DNA of 64,000 nucleotides from an uncultured delta proteobacterium (GTDB lineage: Bacteria; Desulfobacterota; Binatia; DP-6), in NCBI GenBank assembly GCA_963815115.1, contig CAWFFN010000005.1, forward strand, positions 1,344,001 through 1,408,000, in the 5' to 3' direction. A program made the translations under genes and the position numbers. Every line of letters begins with the position of its first letter. Positions within the stretch are counted from its first letter, which is position 1. Under the pieces are notes generated by a model. It saw nothing but the letters and a program-made list of their open reading frames with translations. It was not told where the DNA came from and ran no database searches. Positions 19,908-63,637 of the stretch are shown one piece after another.

Positions 19908-20259
<352 letters not shown>

Positions 20260-20750
20260 GTGAAATCAATAGGTTAGCGTCCCTGGGGGACGCGCTGGGG
20301 ACGCCAGCATCCCGCGGCGACCAGTGGGCACCCGAGAGCTCGTCGACGCGCTCGACATCGTTGCTTCGATGTTGGTGTCTACCTACAGGCACCGCGTCCC
20401 CCGGAAGGCGGGGACACCGCTCATCACCTCCGGGTCGATGCTGATCGGGAGCTGCCGTAGTTCAGCCTCGTCCATCTCCGAGCTGCATGAGCCGGAAGGA
20501 TACGCGACTCCAATTCCGTCCCAGCCTTGGTGGAGATGTGGCATGGTCCGGTGCGAGAAGCGCCTCCACGAACCGGCCCGTGCAAAACCTGGGAGCAGAT
20601 CGTACCGGCCGTTGCGCGCGCGGACGATTGAGAAGCGGCTTGCCAGAATGCCGCCCGCGCTGCGATACGAGGTGGGCTAGAGCCGGGGGCGTACCTCCAC
20701 GAGCCTGGCCGGGCATTGCGAGGTTACTTCCCCGACTTGAACTTTCCCGC

Positions 20751-23386: not shown

Positions 23387-23409
23387 GGTTCGATTCCCCC
23401 CGCCTCCAT
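23387..23409 (+). repeat. att-like direct repeat of the tmRNA 3' end
   Basis: GGTTCGATTCCCCCCGCCTCCAT is identical to 20236-20258 (23 bp). Confidence 0.9.
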
Positions 23410-23530
23410 AATTAAATCAATGGGTTGGGCGTTTCTGGGGACGCGAGAGGGACGCTGTACACGGCAGAGGGGAGCCGGCCTCGCCAGCCCGTTCGCCTAC
23501 GGGGGAGCGGATCTGTGGACCCCGACTGGT

Positions 23531-26500
23531 TCATGCGACCGCCGCAGCGAAGGAGGCGAACAGGTCGCCGGGGAGAGGTTGCTCGAGCCGCCACGTGATG
23601 GCCATCGGGAGCTCTCCCTCGTGGCTGACGTAGTGGGCAGGTCCGAGGAACCAGAACGCGCGATCATCCGTCCGCAGCCGGGCGAACAGCATGATCGACG
23701 TTCCGCGGTCGCGATGCTGCCGATAGCGAAGACCGGTCTCGCTGTCGGCCCGCGTCGTCGATTGGCTCTCCCAGTGGACGAGGTCGCGATTGATGGCGTA
23801 GTCGCGGTAGCGCGTCGTCGGCGAGAATTGCCCGGAGGTCTTGTCGAGCGTGAACGCGAGGAGGTCGACGCGCCGCTCCTTCGCCCAGTAGACGCCCGTT
23901 TGCCAGGGAGGAACCCTCGCACCCGCCCCGCGGCCGAAGGCGGCGAGGATCTCGAGACGGGAATAGCGCGCGTGAATCTGTAGCGGTACGTCCGAGGGGT
24001 CAACGAGCGGCGTGTGCAGGTGGTCGACCCGGCCGGCGAGGGCATCGAGCAGCTCGAGGATCTCGACGCGAATCTGCGGATGTGCCCAGAGCACCGCGCA
24101 GGCATCGGCGATCGATGCCGACTTGTCGACGACCTGGCCCGCGACTGACGCGACGAGCATTCGGAGCAGTCGTTGCTCGCGCGCCGTCAGGGCGGCGAGA
24201 TCGGGAGCCGCTTCCGTATCGATGATCCGGCGGTATGTGTCGAGGCGCTCGGCATCGTCGACGTGGAGCAGGCGGCCGCACGCGCGGCGCAGGGCAGCCT
24301 CGTGTCGCCCGGACGCCTGGGTCGACACCCCGGCTGCCTCGAGGAGGTCCGACCAGCTCCTGTTGCCCGCGTAGACGTCCTCGAGCTCCACGCCCGCCTC
24401 GCTCAGGAACTCGGTCAGGCGCACCTGGCGACCGCCGCTCGCCATGGCCCGCAGCTCCTCCACCTTCCCCGTCCATCGTGACGGGACGGCGTTCTGAATG
24501 CCGGAGAGCACGATGTCGGCGGCGACCGGATCGAGCTCCATGTGGCACCCTGCGGGGAGGAAGGGGAAGCCGCCGGCGATCTGCTGGATCAGCTGACTGC
24601 GGCTGCCGCCGAGCAGAGCCCGGAAGCGCCGGTCGAAGCGGAACTCGCTGCGGTGGCGCCCGACGAAGTCGAGCACCGTGCAGCCGACCTTGCCGCGACT
24701 CACGCGCAAGCCACGGCCGAGCTGCTGCAGGAAGAGGACGGGGCTGTCGGTTGGGCGCAGCAGGAGCAGCGTGTCGACGGTGGGCAGATCGACCCCTTCG
24801 TTGAAGAGATCAACGGAGAAGACGACGTTGACCCGACCCTCGGTGAGCCGGCGCAGCGCCTCGCGCCGTTCGTCCGGCGGGCTGTCGCCCCACACGGCCG
24901 CGGCGGCGATCCCGGCGTCGCCGAAGGCGCGCGCCATGAAACGGGCGTGGTCCACGCTGACGCAGAAACCGAGCGCCCGCATGCGATGGGGGTCGTCGAC
25001 GTGATCAATCACCTGGGCGATGACACGACGTGCCCAGACGTCGTTGCCGGTGAGGAGCCGGGATAGCCCCTCGACGTCGTAGCCGCGCCCCCGCCGCCAG
25101 GGGACGTCGCGCAGGTCGAGGCCGTCGTGCACCCCATAGTAGGAGAAGGGGCAGAGCCGGTGCTGGTCGATCGCGTCCCAGAGCCGCAGCTCGGCCGCGA
25201 TCCGGTCGTCGAACCAGTGCAGCAGGGGGAACCCGTCGCTGCGCTCCGGCGTGCCGGTGAGCCCCAGCAGCTCGAGCGGACGGACGTGCTCGAGCACGGC
25301 GCGATACGTGTCGGCCGCGGCGTGGTGGAACTCGTCGACGATCACCACGTCGAAGTGCGTCGGGTCGAGGTGGCGCAAGCCGGTCGACGACAGACTCTGG
25401 ATGGACGCGAAGACGTGCTCGAAGCGACTCGGTCTCTCGCCGCCCACCCACAGCTCGCCGAAGGTCGCGTCGCGCAGGGCATGCTGGAACGTCGCCCGAC
25501 TCTGCTGGAGGATCTCGGCACGATGCGCCACGAAGAGTAGCCGCGCACGGGGCAGCTCGTCGCGGAGCCGCTGGTAGTCGATCGCCGCCATCACGGTCTT
25601 CCCGGTTCCGGTGGCCGACACGAGCAGGTTGCGGTGGTGGCCCAGGCGGCGGGAGACGGCAATCTCCTCCAGGAGACGCTCCTGGAAGGGATCGGGGCGT
25701 AGCTCGGTGGGGGGCAGGGCGATCGCCTTCGCCCGGTCGGGTGGTGCAGCGCGGCGGGCGAACTCGTCGGGGTCGTACGGGACGAAGTCACCGCCGTTCC
25801 AGTACGACTCGAAGACGGCGACCATCTTGGTGACGACTTCCGGGTTGCGCGCCTCCGAGACCCGGACGTTCCATTCGAGGCCGGTCGCGTGCGCCGCGTG
25901 TGTCCAGTTGGACGAGCCGATGTAGGCGGTGGAGAAGCCCGAGGCTCGGTGAAAGAGCCACGCCTTGGCGTGGAGGCGGGTGGCCGTCGTGTCATACGAG
26001 ACCCGCACCTCCGCCCCGAGGGCGCGCAGCGCATCGAGCGCCGCCCCCTCGGTGGAGCCGGTGTAGCTCGTCGTGAGGATGCGGAGGCCCCGAGCGGCAG
26101 CAGCGTGTCGCCGCAGCGCCTCGAGGAACGGGCGCATCCCCGAGCGACGAATGAACGCCATCACCACGTCGAGACGGTCCGCGGATGCGATCTCGGCGAC
26201 GAGCTGGCTTCCGACGCGCGGCTCACCCGGAGCATTCGTGAGGACGGTTGTGTCCAGCAGCGGGATGAGCGGTTCGGGGATCGTCTCGCTGCGGCCGTCG
26301 GGGAGCCGTGCGAGGATGGCATGCAAGACCGTTGCCGGCGCCACGGGAGCATCCTGTTCCGACGTGGCGCCACGAACGGTGCCGCCGATCTCCTCGGCGA
26401 GCCGGCGAGCGAGTGTCGTCGCCACGGCGACCCGTTCCTCCTCGGTCACCGCGGCCAGGGCGCGCTGGATCAGACGACCGAGGTGCAGTGCGATCCGGTC

Positions 26501-26623
26501 CGGTGCGTCCGCAGCGCGAAGCGGTTCTCTCGCGGCCGCCCAGCGATCGCCGAGAGCGTCCAGGCGCGCGTGGAGCGCTTCGGTGATCAGCTGCTCGTAG
26601 AGTCCGCGGGGCTGCTCTGGCAT
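23531..26623 (-). CDS. PLD(HKD)-nuclease/SF2 helicase with DUF3427
   Basis: LHAKAW...YIGSSN, ATGTGKT, DEFHH, QQLGRGLR, and YRDYAIN...HWESQS C-terminus. Confidence 0.9.
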   Translation of the reverse strand: MPEQPRGLYEQLITEALHARLDALGDRWAAAREPLRAADAPDRIALHLGRLIQRALAAVTEEERVAVATTLARRLAEEIGGTVRGATSEQDAPVAPATVLHAILARLPDGRSETIPEPLIPLLDTTVLTNAPGEPRVGSQLVAEIASADRLDVVMAFIRRSGMRPFLEALRRHAAAARGLRILTTSYTGSTEGAALDALRALGAEVRVSYDTTATRLHAKAWLFHRASGFSTAYIGSSNWTHAAHATGLEWNVRVSEARNPEVVTKMVAVFESYWNGGDFVPYDPDEFARRAAPPDRAKAIALPPTELRPDPFQERLLEEIAVSRRLGHHRNLLVSATGTGKTVMAAIDYQRLRDELPRARLLFVAHRAEILQQSRATFQHALRDATFGELWVGGERPSRFEHVFASIQSLSSTGLRHLDPTHFDVVIVDEFHHAAADTYRAVLEHVRPLELLGLTGTPERSDGFPLLHWFDDRIAAELRLWDAIDQHRLCPFSYYGVHDGLDLRDVPWRRGRGYDVEGLSRLLTGNDVWARRVIAQVIDHVDDPHRMRALGFCVSVDHARFMARAFGDAGIAAAAVWGDSPPDERREALRRLTEGRVNVVFSVDLFNEGVDLPTVDTLLLLRPTDSPVLFLQQLGRGLRVSRGKVGCTVLDFVGRHRSEFRFDRRFRALLGGSRSQLIQQIAGGFPFLPAGCHMELDPVAADIVLSGIQNAVPSRWTGKVEELRAMASGGRQVRLTEFLSEAGVELEDVYAGNRSWSDLLEAAGVSTQASGRHEAALRRACGRLLHVDDAERLDTYRRIIDTEAAPDLAALTAREQRLLRMLVASVAGQVVDKSASIADACAVLWAHPQIRVEILELLDALAGRVDHLHTPLVDPSDVPLQIHARYSRLEILAAFGRGAGARVPPWQTGVYWAKERRVDLLAFTLDKTSGQFSPTTRYRDYAINRDLVHWESQSTTRADSETGLRYRQHRDRGTSIMLFARLRTDDRAFWFLGPAHYVSHEGELPMAITWRLEQPLPGDLFASFAAAVA

Positions 26624-26851
26624 GGAACGCACCGCGCCGTGAGTCTCGAGGACCTTCTCTGCACCCAGCGAGCATTGCAGCGACGGCAGCGATGACGACG
26701 GCAACCGTGGACCACGTGGACGCCACCAGCTCCCGCGCCGGGCCGGATTCGATCGCTCGTCGCGCCCTTCGCATCGGGAGACCACCCGCGTGGATCGTCG
26801 AATAGCCACGCGGTCTTGGCTGCCTGCGGTCCCGCCGATGCCATCAGACAA

Positions 26852-30740: not shown

Positions 30741-30844
30741 GCCCTGTGGGCAGCGCGTCGCAAACATGAACTGTCCGCTCAGCATCGGATTACCGACTGA
30801 TTCAGCGGTAGCGCCGCGGGAGGAGCCGATAGGAAGCCGATAGG

Positions 30845-32336
30845 CGTAGCAATGCAGACGGGCTGCCCTCCGCCGCGATAGGTTCGCGGTGGACCACGGG
30901 GTCAGCCGAGACGGCGCCCCAAGCATTGAGGAGGGCAGCCCGATGCAATGCTCCGTGGGATTGGACGTGCACAGCAAGGCGAGCGTGTTCGTGATCCAGG
31001 ACGGGCACGGGCAGGTGCGAGCGCAGGGGGAAATGTCCACGACCCCGGCCGGCTTCCGGGGCTGGCACGAGGCGCAGCGCCTGCCAGCGGGGACGCCCGT
31101 CGCCTTGGAGACCGGGACGGTGGCCTTTTTTGTCGCGCGCGAGCTGACGGCGCTGGGGTGCGCGCCGCTCGTGGTCGATGCCCGCGAGGTGCGGCTCAAG
31201 GCGCAGCGGCCGACCCAGAAGAGCGACCTGCGGGATGCGTTCGAGCTCTGCGACGGCTTGCGGCGGGGGATCGATCGCACCATCGTGCATGTGCCGCCGC
31301 GGCCCGTTGCCCGGCTCCGCGAGACGCTGGCGCGGCGCCGGCACGTGGTGCGTCTCGAGACCGCGCAGGTGAACGCCGTCAAACGGCTACTGCGAGGCGC
31401 GGGGCTGGCGCGCCTGAGCCGGAGTCTCGGGACTCTGGGGTGGGCTGTGCAGAGCTTCCCTAGTCGCCAGCTTGGCGGGCCACGGCGAGCGGCGCGACTA
31501 CGTCGCACCGCACCGCGAACTGTGGCGCTGCGCGCGCACGCAGCGGGTGGCACTGGAGGGCGCGTTGACCGTGCAGCTGGCCGCGCCCGCGTTCGCCCCC
31601 GCCCTCCGCCGGCTCCAGACCATCCCCGGCGTGGGGCCGATCGTCGCCGCCACCGTCCTGGCGGTCTTCTCCGACGTGCGCCGGTTCGCGGACGCGAAGC
31701 ACGCGGCCAGCTATGCGGGCCTGGTCCCGGCCACGTATCACTCGGGCGACCGCGAGGCCTACGGGCGCATCACGAAGCGGGGGTCCCGGGAGCTGCGCAC
31801 GATGCTGTGCGAGGCGGCCCACCATGCCAGTCGCCCGACCCATCCGTTCCACCCCTACTTCGCGCTGCTTTGTGCGAAGCGCGGCTACAAGATGGCGACC
31901 ATCGCGGTCGCGCACCGGCTCGCCCGGATCACGTTCGCCATGCTGCGCGACGGGACGGACTTCGACGTCGCGCAGCTCACTATCGAGGAGGGCCCGGTCG
32001 AACGCACGACCATCCGGCGCGACCGGCTGAAGCGGACCGCAACGCCCGCGTAGCGCGGCCGTTGCCCACGCCACTGCGCACCGCACTCGAGGACGAGCAC
32101 GTGACCCGGGTCGTCTCCTGAGCCACGAGCTCAGATAGCTGTTTGGGGCCGAGCTCTCCTCAGTGCAACGTGGGCCGCGCCCGCGACCCCGAATGGACGC
32201 TTGGTGAGTGCCGGCGCAGCGGACACACGTATCGGGACGATCCCGAGGCGGAGACTCACTCAACCCTCACGACGAGCGGCAGAACGATCAACAGACGGCG
32301 ACGTCGATGCCCCCCTGGACAGCCCGTCTTCATGGG
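30845..32336 (+). mobile_element. IS1111-group IS110 element, transposase (30943-32053) frameshifted
   Basis: GLDVH, LETG, KSD..DA, TIPGVG and YAGLVP..SG motifs; subterminal IRs ATGCAGACGGGCTG / CAGCCCGTCTTCAT; ~270-bp 3' non-coding region. Confidence 0.88.
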
Positions 32337-32417
32337 CGCGATGAACGGGGTTTTGCGAAGGTTTACGGAACGCCCCATCCCGGGCCATCGCCGCATTTTC
32401 GCCCGCTCCGTAACAAG
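32337..32417 (+). repeat. 90-bp element copy, right part (left 9 bp at 30836-30844, split by IS1111)
   Basis: 3 mismatches to the copy at 58431. Confidence 0.9.
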
Positions 32418-42900: not shown

Positions 42901-43121
42901 GTGGCCACCAAATTGTCGTTGGACACTGCTGTGATGCGATGACTCGGAGACGACGATGCACTTCGAGCTGGTCAGCGAGATCACGGCAGTTGTCACGGTA
43001 GAGTACTCGTAAGTCCATGCTCAAGCGCAATATTCTTTGCCCATTTGAGCTGGTTCCCCTCCTGGACTGGACAGGGTACAGGACCCGAGTCTCCCATCGG
43101 AGGTGACGCGAAGGGCCATGG

Positions 43122-43213
43122 GCCGATAGGACGCAAGAAGGGGGCATTCGCCCTTCGCGCCTACCAGCCATCTGCCCCAGGCGCGTCTACTAGCCGCCGC
43201 CCTGCCGTAACGA
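43122..43213 (+). repeat. Highly diverged 90-bp element copy (ends conserved)
   Basis: GCCGATAGG-N6-GAAGGGGG...GCCGTAAC at about the same spacing. Confidence 0.55.
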
Positions 43214-43250: not shown

Positions 43251-43325
43251 GGGCGCCGTCTCGGCTGACCCCGTGGTCCACGCGAACCGTATCGCGGCGG
43301 AGGGCAGCCCGTCTTCATTGCTACG
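43251..43325 (-). mobile_element. Solo left end of the IS1111 element
   Basis: The reverse complement nearly matches 30845-30919. Confidence 0.85.
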
Positions 43326-43463
43326 GCTGTCTGCCGTAACCAGGTCGGCACGAGCACGTAGCGGGGCGTTGGTTGATTTTCGACACCGCCCTCGCTGATG
43401 GCATGACGTAACGCGCATCGGCGTAGTCGTCGCGCGAGGGGGTGCCGGCGCGGGTCAGCGCTG

Positions 43464-45545: not shown

Positions 45546-45638
45546 GCAGATAGGCGCGATGAAGGGCCTTTTTCCGCGAAGGCTTAGAGAACGCCCCCTG
45601 CTCCGACGTTCGCTGAGTTTTCGCCTGCTCCGTCACAG
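45546..45638 (+). repeat. Diverged 90-bp element copy
   Basis: GCAGATAGGCGCGATGAAGGGCCTTTT...GAACGCCCC...TTTTCGCCTGCTCCGTCACA. Confidence 0.8.
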
Positions 45639-49805: not shown

Positions 49806-49894
49806 GCCGATAGGAGCGATGAACGGGGTTTTGCGAAGGTTTACGGAACGCCCCATCCCGGACCTTCGCCGCATTTTCGCCCGCTCCGTAACAA
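49806..49894 (+). repeat. 90-bp element copy
   Basis: Identical to 58431-58519. Confidence 0.95.
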
Positions 49895-50775: not shown

Positions 50776-51111
50776 TATCGCTCCCAAGCGTGTCACGAGT
50801 CTCTGGCCTCTGAGGGAGCCGCCTCCACCTCGCCCCGCGCTGGTCCCTGGGGGCCCGACCCGGAGGAACACGAATCACGGCGCTGCTTGCGGACGTACGT
50901 CGTGCCAAGCGGTACGAAACCACGGACGGCGCCCGCCTCCGCCGGGTCGTCTGAACGCCGTGATCTCTGCAACGCGGCTTCTGAGGATGGTCGCGATCTC
51001 CCCGGTGGGGCAGCTGCCGGGGCGCACCTAGATGACCTTTGGCAGATGGGCGACATGAAGCAGATAGGCGACCTGAAGGCCCTTTTTCGCAAAAGGTGAC
51101 GGAAAGGGTCT

Positions 51112-52600
51112 GGTACGAAACTGATCGGCACACCTCAAGCGGCGGGCCGCAGTTCGACGGCGTAGCCGAGTTGGGTGAGGCGGCGCACGAGGCGGGCGGC
51201 GACGCGGCGCTTGTCGCGGCGGTCGAAGTAGTGAGCGCCGAGGTCGCAGTAGTTGGTCGCGGCGCGCAGCATGTGGTAGGCGGCCACGAGCATCGAGGCG
51301 GCCACCGCGATGATGGCTTGCTTCGGCCCGCGCCGCGCCTTGAGGCGCACGTACTGCGCCTGGACGTAGGAGTCCTTCACCTTGATGGCGGCCCAGGCCG
51401 CTTGGACGAGCGCGGTCTTGAGCCACCGGCCGCCCTTGCGGACGCGGACAGAGCGGCGCTTGCCGGCGCTCTCGTCGAGGCGGGGGCAGAGGCCGGCCCA
51501 CGCCACCAGGTGCCCAGCCGTGGCAAACCGCGTCATGTCGCGGCCGATCTCGGCGCGCAGGCTATGCGCCGTCGTCGGGCTGATCCCGGGGATGGTCGTG
51601 AGCCGCTCGACGACGAGCGCAAAGGGGGCGCGCGCATGGGTGATGCGCTCTTCGACCTCCGCGATGGCGTGATCGAGCTGGGCCCTGCGCTCGAGGTGGA
51701 GGCGCCACTCGAACCGATGGTAGTCGGTGACCGTCCCGTGCAGCGCCGCGGTCAGCGCGGCCCGCGGGGCCTGGACCCGGGTGGGGACCAGCGCGGCCAG
51801 GCGCGCCGGGTCCGTCTCCCCGTCCACCCGTGCCGCCAGGATCGCGCGCCCCGCGCTGCCGAACACGTCCGCCAACACGGTGGCGAGCTTGAGGGTGGCG
51901 TCCTCCAAGACCTTGTGGACGCGCTGCGCGTGCCGGGTATGCTCGCGCACGAGTTGCGTCCGGGTCCGCGTGAGCCCCCGGAGCTCCTGCGTCGCCGCGG
52001 CGGGCACGAAGCTCGGCCGGATCAGGCCATGCGCGAGCAGATCCGCCAACCACGCCGCATCGCGGACGGCGCTCTTGCGCCCAGGCACGTTGCGCACCGC
52101 GGTCGCATGGGCGAGGACGAGTTCGACGGACCCGGCCAGGACGTGCCAGACGGGCTTCCAGTACACCCCGGTCGACTCCATCACGACGTGGGTGACCTCG
52201 TGCGTGCGCAGCCAGTCCCCGAGCGCGAGCAGGTCCCGCGTGCACGTCCCGAACTCCCGGGTCTCCCGGCGCACCGCCTTCCGCGTGGCGCGTCGCACGC
52301 AGGCGACGACCGTCGCTTGATGCACGTCGCGGCCGGCACAGCGGGCAGGCCACACCTCCATCGTGTGGCCCTCCTTCTGCGACGGCGGCGCGGGCCCCGC
52401 GTCATCGAAGCCTGGGACGCGTGCTCTGGCGACAGCGACGTCGCCGTGGCGACAGTCCGGGGTGCTCGCAAGGTCCCTGGCTCAAACTTATCGACGGGCT
52501 CGGAGGCACCACTCCATTTCCCGAGCTCTCCGCCGCCGTGGCGTTCCAGCGTACCACGGTTTCGTGCGCCAGGGTGGGGCCGCAGGGGCCATGAGCAACT
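51112..52600 (-). mobile_element. IS110-group element (transposase 51135-52361) with ~240-bp 5' non-coding region
   Basis: Full-length ORF with DVH, MESTG, TIPGI and AGLCP..ESAG motifs; CT dinucleotide at both boundaries; the KTD position reads KSA, so it is probably inactive. Confidence 0.85.
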
Positions 52601-53551: not shown

Positions 53552-53641
53552 GCCGATAGGAGCGATGAACGGGGTTTTGCGAAGGTTTACGGAACGCCCC
53601 ATCCCAGACCTTCGCCGCATTTTCGCCCGCTCCGTAACAAG
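53552..53641 (+). repeat. 90-bp element copy
   Basis: 1 mismatch to the copy at 58431. Confidence 0.95.
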
Positions 53642-56724: not shown

Positions 56725-56814
56725 GCCGATAGGAGCGATGAACGGGGTTTTGCGAAGATTTACGGAACGCCCCATCCCAGACCTTCGCCGCATTTTCGCC
56801 CGCTCCGTAACAAG
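56725..56814 (+). repeat. 90-bp element copy
   Basis: 2 mismatches to the copy at 58431. Confidence 0.95.
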
Positions 56815-58430: not shown

Positions 58431-58520
58431 GCCGATAGGAGCGATGAACGGGGTTTTGCGAAGGTTTACGGAACGCCCCATCCCGGACCTTCGCCGCATT
58501 TTCGCCCGCTCCGTAACAAG
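58431..58520 (+). repeat. 90-bp element, reference copy
   Basis: GCCGATAGGAGCGATGAACGGGGTTTTGCGAAGGTTTACGGAACGCCCCATCCCGGACCTTCGCCGCATTTTCGCCCGCTCCGTAACAAG. Confidence 0.95.

Positions 58521-60888: not shown

Positions 60889-63637
<2,749 letters not shown>

Follow-up and report, generated by a model that had tools for sequence, protein, structure and literature searches.

We analysed a 64,000-nt stretch of an uncultured delta proteobacterium of the class Binatia (GenBank assembly GCA_963815115.1, contig CAWFFN010000005.1, positions 1,344,001 to 1,408,000 of the forward strand; hereafter the window) and found that a repeat of about 90 bp in it is interrupted by a 1,492-bp insertion sequence (IS) of IS1111 type, which occupies window positions 30845-32336 and is called ISa here. 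Judged from sequence comparison, ISa very probably belongs, in decayed form, to the IS1111 group within the IS110 family, and its lineage carried a guide RNA aimed at the left box of this repeat, which is itself restricted to one bacterial family. The evidence consisted of the element's ends and the site restored by its removal, a conserved fold with compensatory changes in its 3' region, guide segments that follow the flanks from one relative to the next, and a motif shared by the left flanks of all remnants. The features of the element and its site are as follows.

30836-30844, plus strand: left 9 bases of the interrupted repeat, forming the left flank of the IS, GCCGATAGG
30845-32336, plus strand: ISa, IS1111-type insertion sequence, the sole full-length copy in the genome
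30845-30851, plus strand: left terminal extension of 7 nt, CGTAGCA, with its initial CG common to the right flank
30852-30865, plus strand: left subterminal inverted repeat ATGCAGACGGGCTG
30860-30941, plus strand: leader hairpin, an inverted-repeat pair in which GGGCTGCCCTCC (30860-30871) pairs with GGAGGGCAGCCC (30930-30941)
30943-31440, plus strand: N-terminal part of the transposase, DEDD/RuvC-like domain, PF01548
31441-31451, plus strand: frame-shift zone relative to intact relatives (sequencing error possible)
31451-32053, plus strand: C-terminal part of the transposase in another frame, PF02371, with GLVPATYHSG and the stop codon at 32051-32053
32093-32159, plus strand: target-binding module of the predicted seek/bridge RNA, from comparison and folding
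32095-32101 with 32150-32156: basal stem of the module; CCC 32105-32107 with GGG 32145-32147: second stem; 32120-32132: apical hairpin
32111-32119, plus strand: 5' side of the internal loop, TCGTCTCCT, at the position of the right-flank (top-strand) guide, 5 of 9 to its own flank
32133-32142, plus strand: 3' side of the internal loop, in which AGATAGC (32133-32139) repeats the left flank and is followed by TGT (32140-32142)
32160-32215, plus strand: conserved 3' RNA domain with GTGGGCCGCGCCCGCGACCCCGAATGGACGCTTGGTGAG, invariant with respect to the target and containing CGCGCC
32320-32336, plus strand: right subterminal inverted repeat CAGCCCGTCTTCAT (32320-32333) and 3-nt extension GGG
32337-32417, plus strand: right 81 bases of the interrupted repeat, from CGCGATGAACGGGG to CGCTCCGTAACAAG

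Read directly from the window, the junctions are GAAGCCGATAGG / CGTAGCA-ATGCAGACGGGCTG on the left and CAGCCCGTCTTCAT-GGG / CGCGATGAACGGGGTTTTGCG on the right (slashes mark points of insertion throughout). When positions 30836-30844 were joined to 32337-32417, the restored unit had the same length as four intact repeat copies of type A, one of the two main repeat types, and differed from them at the junction by one substitution, GGCGCG for GGAGCG; a variant repeat copy at 45546 has exactly GATAGGCGCGATGAA, as the restored site does. A preliminary description of this DNA had placed the IS precisely inside the 90-bp element, and its coordinates were right. The site is a recurring one: the 20-mer GCGATGAACGGGGTTTTGCG has five exact matches in the window (32338, 49816, 53562, 56735, and 58441) against none in 100 shuffles, and the left 9-mer GCCGATAGG has eight matches against 0.38 expected. 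The left flank of ISa holds this 9-mer twice, 11 bases apart (GCCGATAGGAAGCCGATAGG, at 30825-30844), while the intact copies hold it once. Target duplication was absent at the restored site. The junction carries an ambiguity of at most two bases, since the last bases are GG in the left flank and GGG in the IS. The shared GG core suggested earlier corresponds to this genuine G-run ambiguity, but the dinucleotide of the family is CG or TG: among nine related IS whose ends were mapped, eight begin with the same two bases as their right flank. The dinucleotide shared at the junction is therefore more likely CG than GG.

The layout of ISa is that of the IS1111 group. According to the part of PMC11187229 drawn on here, this group is set apart from IS110 by 7-nt and 3-nt extensions, subterminal inverted repeats, a GL-P----S(t)G motif in the C-terminal part, and a long non-coding region (NCR) after the transposase gene (tnp), and its inverted repeats are usually 11-13 bp long; a range of 7-17 bp is given in the corresponding part of PMC11208160. 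The subterminal inverted repeats of ISa, ATGCAGACGGGCTG and CAGCCCGTCTTCAT, span 14 bp with one mismatch and are perfect in its relatives, and the same 7-nt left and 3-nt right extensions were present in all nine distinct IS with mapped ends. The NCR downstream of tnp measures 283 bp (32054-32336) versus 98 bp upstream (30845-30942), and the 12-bp stem of the leader hairpin links the left inverted repeat with the ribosome-binding site before the ATG at 30943. The transposase matched PF01548 (DEDD_Tnp_IS110; 30943-31455, E 3.9e-12) and PF02371 (31472-32050, E 1.5e-26), and the motif GL-P----S(t)G was present as AGLVPATYHSGD in the open reading frame (ORF) 31472-32053. Both halves were also matched by NF033542, the NCBIfam model 'IS110 family RNA-guided transposase', to which an intact relative scored 199 bits (cut-off 140). 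Among solved structures, sequence similarity was confined to the transposases of IS621 (E 4.4e-7) and ISCro4 (E 1e-6).

We then examined whether the downstream NCR encodes a guide RNA by comparing ISa with its relatives, which were sought by DNA in 41 related genomes (20 with a match), by a single-protein scan of the genome collection (8 loci), and by protein in 301 genomes of the class, 13 of which matched at E<=1e-60. The relatives found have inverted repeats and extensions as in ISa, lie in other flanks, and have 3' regions with a common scaffold. On an alignment of ten sequences, this scaffold folds from a basal stem of 7 bp through a CCCC/GGGG stem and an internal loop to an apical hairpin of 4 bp. 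Pairing in the structure reached 89.9% of 149 cells versus 79.6% in shuffles, with compensatory changes on both sides in 7 of the 15 pairs, and the covariation score of 0.314 (0.135 in shuffles) was attained by none of 500 shuffles. When the partner was slid by 1-3 columns as a control, only 20-55% was paired.

The two sides of the internal loop were compared with the flanks of eight IS that have mapped ends and different flanks, namely the window copy and those of G002, G008, a Gemmatimonadetes metagenome-assembled genome, G168, G161, G271, and G105 (G numbers denote genomes). In this order, the reverse complement of the 5' side matched the right flank of its own IS at 5, 8, 9, 9, 7, 6, 8, and 9 of 9 positions (mean 7.6) versus a mean of 3.75 for the 56 non-own pairs, and the observed sum was attained in 1 of 20,000 flank permutations. 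The first seven bases of the 3' side matched the left flank of their own IS at 5, 4, 3, 5, 5, 5, 6, and 6 of 7 positions (mean 4.9) versus a mean of 2.3 for non-own pairs, with the observed sum attained in 4 of 20,000 permutations. These seven guide bases are followed on the 3' side by CGT or TGT, with which the IS itself begins. The intact copy in G002 (locus L022) has its own target halves CGCGAGTGT/TGACCGAA. Guide-target covariation had been proposed as a check in the preliminary description, and both loop sides followed the flanks; its view of the element as IS1111-type, RNA-guided, and site-specific is supported by the family features, the fold, this covariation, and the left flanks described below. 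Inspection by eye of the conserved 3' domain for a donor-binding loop identified none; the strings there that resemble CATGGG or the subterminal inverted repeat (sTIR) do not change as the IS ends change.

A further arrangement of the module was observed at loci L079 (G105), L071, L082, L088, and L094 (G147), where the 3' NCR contains two tandem guide-loop modules. Only the second of them (CATCCCCCGT and ACCGAGCCGTG) fits the observed flanks GCGAGC/CGGGGGATG, and the first, which is at the ancestral position, specifies CGAAAAC/CGGGCCAAC, a site not seen occupied.

The specificity of the lineage was further assessed from its other insertions. Besides the full-length ISa, the genome contained ten shorter matches. 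Eight matches with a left end were inspected, of which six belonged to this lineage, i.e. the window copy and five with a CGTAGCA-type end (one of them CATAGCA), and two to different lineages; a seventh site came from a remnant in G003 (locus L006), a genome of the same genus. One of the remnants lies in the window.

43251-43334, minus strand: left-end remnant of a second ISa copy, 84 bp, with left flank GGCAGACAGC

The seven left flanks end in CCGATAGG, GACATAGG, CAGATAGC, CAGACAGC, GAGATACG, CAGATAGC, and CGGATAGG, so that a GATAGG-like motif terminates every one of them, and AGATAGC of the loop matched them at 5, 5, 7, 6, 5, 7, and 5 of 7 positions (non-cognate mean 2.3). Copies at unrelated sequences, which would speak against a fixed target, were looked for, and all seven lineage flanks shared the motif. 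Judged from this motif, the lineage inserts in a single orientation and at a single specific site. Some 90 bp from the remnant at 43251-43334, a short palindromic stretch (43114-43165) begins with the left box of the repeat (GGCCGATAGGACGCAAGAAGGGGGCATTCGCCCTTCGCGCCTACC).

In the window copy, the 3' side of the loop reads AGATAGC TGT T (32133-32143), with TGT in the place taken in relatives by a copy of the first IS bases, and its AGATAGC fits fully, at 7 of 7 positions, at two other remnant insertions. Two segments of the NCR had been put forward as guides beforehand. CAGATAG (32132-32138) turned out to be the guide segment in the loop, with only its first C forming the last base of the apical stem. 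CGCGCC (32176-32181), on the other hand, was scaffold and no guide, because it sits in GTGGGCCGCGCCCGCGACCCC, which aligns with (C/A)TGGGGCGC..GACCCC in relatives with quite different targets. The right-flank guide could be compared with that of a sibling fragment at C5:366480-366564 (C numbers denote contigs), which is 86% identical and has kept the loop, with the guide TTCATGTCCT on one side and AGATAGC CGT on the other. Against the ATGAA box of the repeat, the sibling guide fitted 6 of 9 positions in the window flank, 7 of 9 in a type-C repeat copy and likewise in a half copy at window 51061, and 8 of 9 in CAGATGGG/CGACATGAAG at window 51043. The ATGAA/ACGAA position, which separates type-A from type-B repeats, is also where the two siblings differ. 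The guide of the window copy fitted every repeat variant at 5 of 9 positions or fewer, and we read it as either decayed or tuned to a variant absent from the genome.

Several observations weigh against an RNA-guided insertion of ISa at this site. The right-flank guide of the window copy agreed with CGCGATGAA in no more than 5 of 9 positions (6 when wobble is allowed), the lowest value among the eight IS and not clearly higher than the 3.75 averaged by non-cognate pairs, and its left-flank guide matched its own flank at 5 of 7 positions rather than all 7; the left-flank guide of G008 likewise reached only 3 of 7. When 4,573 genome sites of the type GAT[AG]G[GC] were searched, no better-than-chance site for the window right-flank guide was found, and the only 8-of-9 matches lay within GATGGC contexts, at about chance level. 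The loops were chosen by eye and with a regular expression, the better of two offsets was taken as the register both for own and for non-own pairs, and three of the eight IS (G002, G168, and partly G008) have similar targets and are therefore not independent. Finally, the frameshift in tnp is possibly an assembly error; the contigs from public runs were short and do not cover the zone.

Intact relatives of the transposase are 67-72% identical to it, and the homology changes frame between approximately 31441 and 31451; the two parts sum to about 367 aa, against 368 aa in an intact relative, both slightly beyond the 330-350 aa that PMC11187229 gives as a description of the group. In four public sequencing runs, the bins at 31404-31470 had a depth of 0 (three runs) or 1.5 (the fourth), the contigs were short, and the best run contained 0.21 of the words. 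Contigs from these runs, whose coverage is fragmentary, did not show an end-to-end joint of the IS. The transposase gene thus appears to be broken, unless 31441-31451 contains an indel that could be an assembly error. Because the transposase lies in two frames, the genome lacks an intact copy, and the right-flank guide misfits its flank, the copy is to all appearances now inactive, a relic.

Movement of the IS in this lineage would depend on a DEDD recombinase together with a guide RNA (seekRNA or bridge RNA) derived from the NCR that follows the transposase gene. The guide is predicted to lie in the internal loop between two stems, where the 5' side of the loop would pair with the top strand of the future right-hand DNA, and the 3' side would pair with the bottom strand of the left-hand DNA and then with the first bases of the element. 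The crossover would take place at the CG or TG common to the start of the element and the right flank. The lineage was very probably aimed at the left box of the repeat, (C)AGATAG[G/C] / CG..ATGAA, and the window copy landed there in what is probably a near-cognate site. By analogy with the family, the RNA would be transcribed and bound by the transposase, and the element would pass through a circular intermediate.

The target of ISa was characterized in the window and across genomes. Repeat detection yielded five 97-nt copies in the window with 85-100% identity, and the copies located there are listed below.

49806-49893 (plus strand), 53552-53639, 56725-56812, and 58431-58518: intact type-A repeat copies
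45546-45637, plus strand: variant repeat copy with GATAGGCGCGATGAA
60491-60582, minus strand: type-B repeat copy

A profile search of the genome gave 21 matches, 18 of them near full length, and iteration raised the number to 29, including shorter variants on contig C8. The 18 near-full copies fall into two clusters of nine, at C5:1376-1419 kb and C9:318-429 kb, with 15 of the 18 in one orientation, and the C5 cluster lies just downstream of the tmRNA gene (window 19908-20260). The two main types differ in their left third and have the right part with GAACGCCCCATCCCGGACCTTCGCCGCATTTTCGCCCGCTCCGTAACA in common; a 3-nt indel also distinguishes type A from type B. With a sequence-only covariance model, the repeat was found in 9 of 61 genomes, all belonging to the same family as the window (8 of the 24 further genomes in this family, none of the 36 from other families), and the related genomes had 1-7 matches versus 23 in the window genome. 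An Rfam gathering search of the whole window matched the tmRNA only and left the repeat without a match, and no paper describing the repeat was found in a literature search on Binatia, repetitive elements, insertion sequences, and IS110. The preliminary description had spoken of an undescribed target class. This is apt for the repeat as such, which has neither an Rfam match nor a paper that we found, but not for the class, as this IS family is known to target short intergenic repeats (repetitive extragenic palindromes (REP), attC sites, and transposon inverted repeats (IRs), in the part of PMC11187229 drawn on here).

Different copies of the repeat have different neighbouring genes, some of them truncated. 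Around 11 copies in seven other genomes, 22 of 26 candidate ORFs were scanned for a conserved neighbour, and no gene was shared; the SnoaL-like ORF after the copy in G015, for instance, was unrelated to the ORF after the window copy (E 11). At L096 (G003:C8) and L099 (G016), the repeat abuts truncated genes, i.e. a sigma-54 activator that starts at position 87 of a 168-position profile and a fragment of FMO-like type, respectively. The repeat may mark borders of rearrangements or insertions. Two other readings of it were set aside. As a palindrome of the REP or bacterial interspersed mosaic element (BIME) type, it would be expected to fold and be dispersed, and the fold z-scores were -1.61 to +1.13 (14 folds), with the 18 near-full copies in two clusters. 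As a coding sequence, it has one open frame, but this is interrupted by a stop in the 45546 variant, lacks a start codon, and is followed by a different sequence at each copy.

ISa is not the only IS found at this repeat. Four 1,572-bp units, each composed of a type-B repeat and a 1,481-bp IS110-type element (ISb), are 99.4-100% identical and have unrelated outer flanks.

C9:341962-343533 (outside the window): repeat and ISb unit
C9:352679-354250 (outside the window): repeat and ISb unit
C9:366037-367600 (outside the window): repeat and ISb unit
C9:428601-430179 (outside the window): repeat and ISb unit

At C9:366037-367690, the order is repeat-ISb-repeat. ISb starts directly after the end of the repeat (GTAACAAG), with an upstream NCR of 225 bp and tnp from base 317 of the unit, and this NCR holds TAACAAGTT, which equals the right end of the repeat plus the first two bases of ISb. 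A third element, ISc (about 51135-52465 on the minus strand, in the window region 51059-52465), is a full-length IS110-type element related to ISb, encodes a transposase of 407 aa on the minus strand (51135-52358), and splits a shorter, type-C-like repeat copy with its other half at 51059-51106. Its NCR holds GATAAGTT at the place homologous to that in ISb, fitting its own junction GGATAAG/TT. Relatives of ISa in G002, G007, and G168 are located at the centre of related repeat elements (GAAAGT/TGACCGAACG), and those in G008 and G022 are 9 bases further right in the left box (TAGGAGCGAYAAC/). By their junctions, several apparently RNA-guided IS lineages use this repeat family at different positions.

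One objection, that the repeat is part of the IS with its ends drawn wrongly, or that the match between CAGATAG and the flank arose by chance, could draw on the ambiguity of up to two bases in the G-run and on the chance recurrence of a 7-mer in a genome of 70% G+C. It is nevertheless most improbable, as seventeen near-full repeat copies have no ISa, relatives with identical ends lie in other flanks, and the 7-mer occupies a loop position that follows the flank in other IS and fits 7 of 7 positions at two further remnants. The repeat might instead be an attC site, either from a chromosomal integron or from an attC cluster lacking an integrase, which would make ISa a member of the known IS1111-attC group. 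Such attC-targeting IS1111 members are known (in the part of PMC11187229 drawn on here), the repeats mostly have one orientation (15 of 18) and lie in island regions with toxin-antitoxin pairs, and the genome encodes two integron integrases above the TIGR02249 cut-off, at C9:616301-617218 (431.7 bits) and C5:519851-520699 (389.3 bits). Repeat copies, however, come no closer to these integrases than about 188 kb and 856 kb, and self-BLAST showed no obvious repeated attC array within approximately 20 kb of either one. An attC site has the inverse core RYYYAAC first (5') and the core GTTRRRY last (3'), which pair in the folded single strand. The core-like motifs of the repeat are in the reversed order, GATAGG first and CCGTAAC last; GTTACGG misses two of the four degenerate positions of the attC consensus; and neither strand of the repeat folds better than shuffles (z -0.85 to +1.13 in 6 folds and -1.61 to +1.11 in 8 variants). 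The repeats are also spaced 0.6-49 kb apart, with genes on both strands, unlike a dense cassette array of about 0.5-1 kb. We consider an attC origin highly unlikely.

Somewhat less remote, yet still doubtful, is that the repeat is a small non-autonomous module spreading with or by the DEDD recombinases that target it, as reported for ssr9, so that the IS seed their own future sites. The four near-identical units of repeat and ISb at loci with unrelated outer flanks, one of them repeat-ISb-repeat, would be expected from such spreading, and so would the amplification of the repeat to 18-29 copies in the window genome only, against 1-7 in relatives; the ssr9 module of ISPpu9 offers a precedent (in the part of PMC12288879 drawn on here). 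In addition, CGCCCG and AACAAG were present in four of four ISb-attached repeats, and CGCCCG in one of five solo type-B repeats (5/126 = 0.04, calculated by hand). Guided insertion would also select the AACAAG variant, however, and the matches of the ISb and ISc NCRs to their own junctions fit ordinary guided insertion beside pre-existing repeats. The outer flanks of the 1,572-bp units have no common motif, type-A repeats never carry ISb, and end similarity between the repeat and ISb was not found. We regard it as correspondingly unlikely that the repeat is a self-spreading landing pad, a passenger module moved with or by the recombinases, to which at least three IS lineages have retuned their guide loops; if this were true, each move would plant a new target.

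The last 40 bases of the tmRNA gene (19908-20260; Rfam 185.6 bits) are repeated 3.1 kb downstream, at 23387-23426, with 90% identity, which is the usual mark of an island integrated at tmRNA. A helicase-nuclease gene of ResIII/PLD type (23531-26848) follows downstream of the tmRNA, and the region from the tmRNA to about 61 kb contains HigB/HTH and ParE/Phd pairs together with Mutator-type, IS3-type, and several IS110-type transposase pieces. Positions 61900-63150 hold a long series of tandem repeats, 165-168 bp each, that code for Cys-rich CNGxDDDCDG units of a large protein of secreted type; these units correspond to the MopE-type putative metal-binding motif, PF11617.

As an IS, ISa is nothing new in kind, and its mechanism is a known one. 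Its value lies in the series to which it belongs, about ten IS1111-type elements with one RNA scaffold whose loop sides change with the flanks, a natural series for a mechanism described in 2024. Within a single genome, the sibling pair has guides that differ at the bases distinguishing two repeat variants. Such series help to define the programmable positions of the loop. Moreover, several lineages of apparently RNA-guided IS converge on one short, undescribed repeat in the islands of an uncultured soil clade.

The closest known systems were compared with ISa through the parts of PMC11187229, PMC11208160, and PMC12288879 drawn on here, and the following statements hold for those parts. ISEc11, ISKpn4/ISPst6, and ISPa11 (Siddiquee et al. 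2024, PMC11187229) resemble it in their subterminal repeats, 7-nt and 3-nt extensions, DEDD domain with PF02371, GL-P----SG motif, and downstream NCR. In the IS1111 seekRNA of the same paper, the complement of the top strand also lies 5' of the complement of the bottom strand, the two meeting at the insertion point, and the elements share with this lineage an orientation-specific insertion without duplication and natural retargeting (cf. ISEc11/ISXne4). The lineage differs from the elements of PMC11187229 in its transposase of about 368 aa against 330-350 aa and in its target, a repeat confined to one family of uncultured soil bacteria; the window copy, in turn, is dead and has a misfitting right-flank guide. 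Bridge RNAs have been predicted in the right end of 93% of IS1111 elements (PMC11208160), and the guide order of this lineage agrees with them. The bridge RNA of IS621 (Durrant et al. 2024, PMC11208160; structures 8wt6-8wt9) likewise has an internal loop whose two sides read two strands around a shared core, and the IS621 transposase has a distant sequence similarity in its C-terminal domain (E 4.4e-7), but IS621, which belongs to the IS110 group, carries its RNA in the left end, has the guide order reversed, and has very short inverted repeats. Repeated targets are also used by other IS1111 elements, namely IS4321/IS5075 (inverted repeats of the Tn21 family), the attC group, and ISPa11 and ISPpu9/ISPpu10 (REP) (PMC11187229, PMC11208160). 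ISa and its relatives are like them in having a short multi-copy target that offers safe landing sites and on which several lineages converge, and unlike them in that the repeat, as far as the tests went, does not qualify as a hairpin, an attC site, or the end of a transposon, and is low-copy and clustered in islands. ISPpu9/ssr9 (PMC12288879) provides a similar case of a small module found beside an IS110-family transposase gene and alone elsewhere; ssr9, however, is a small-RNA gene moved as circles by the transposase.

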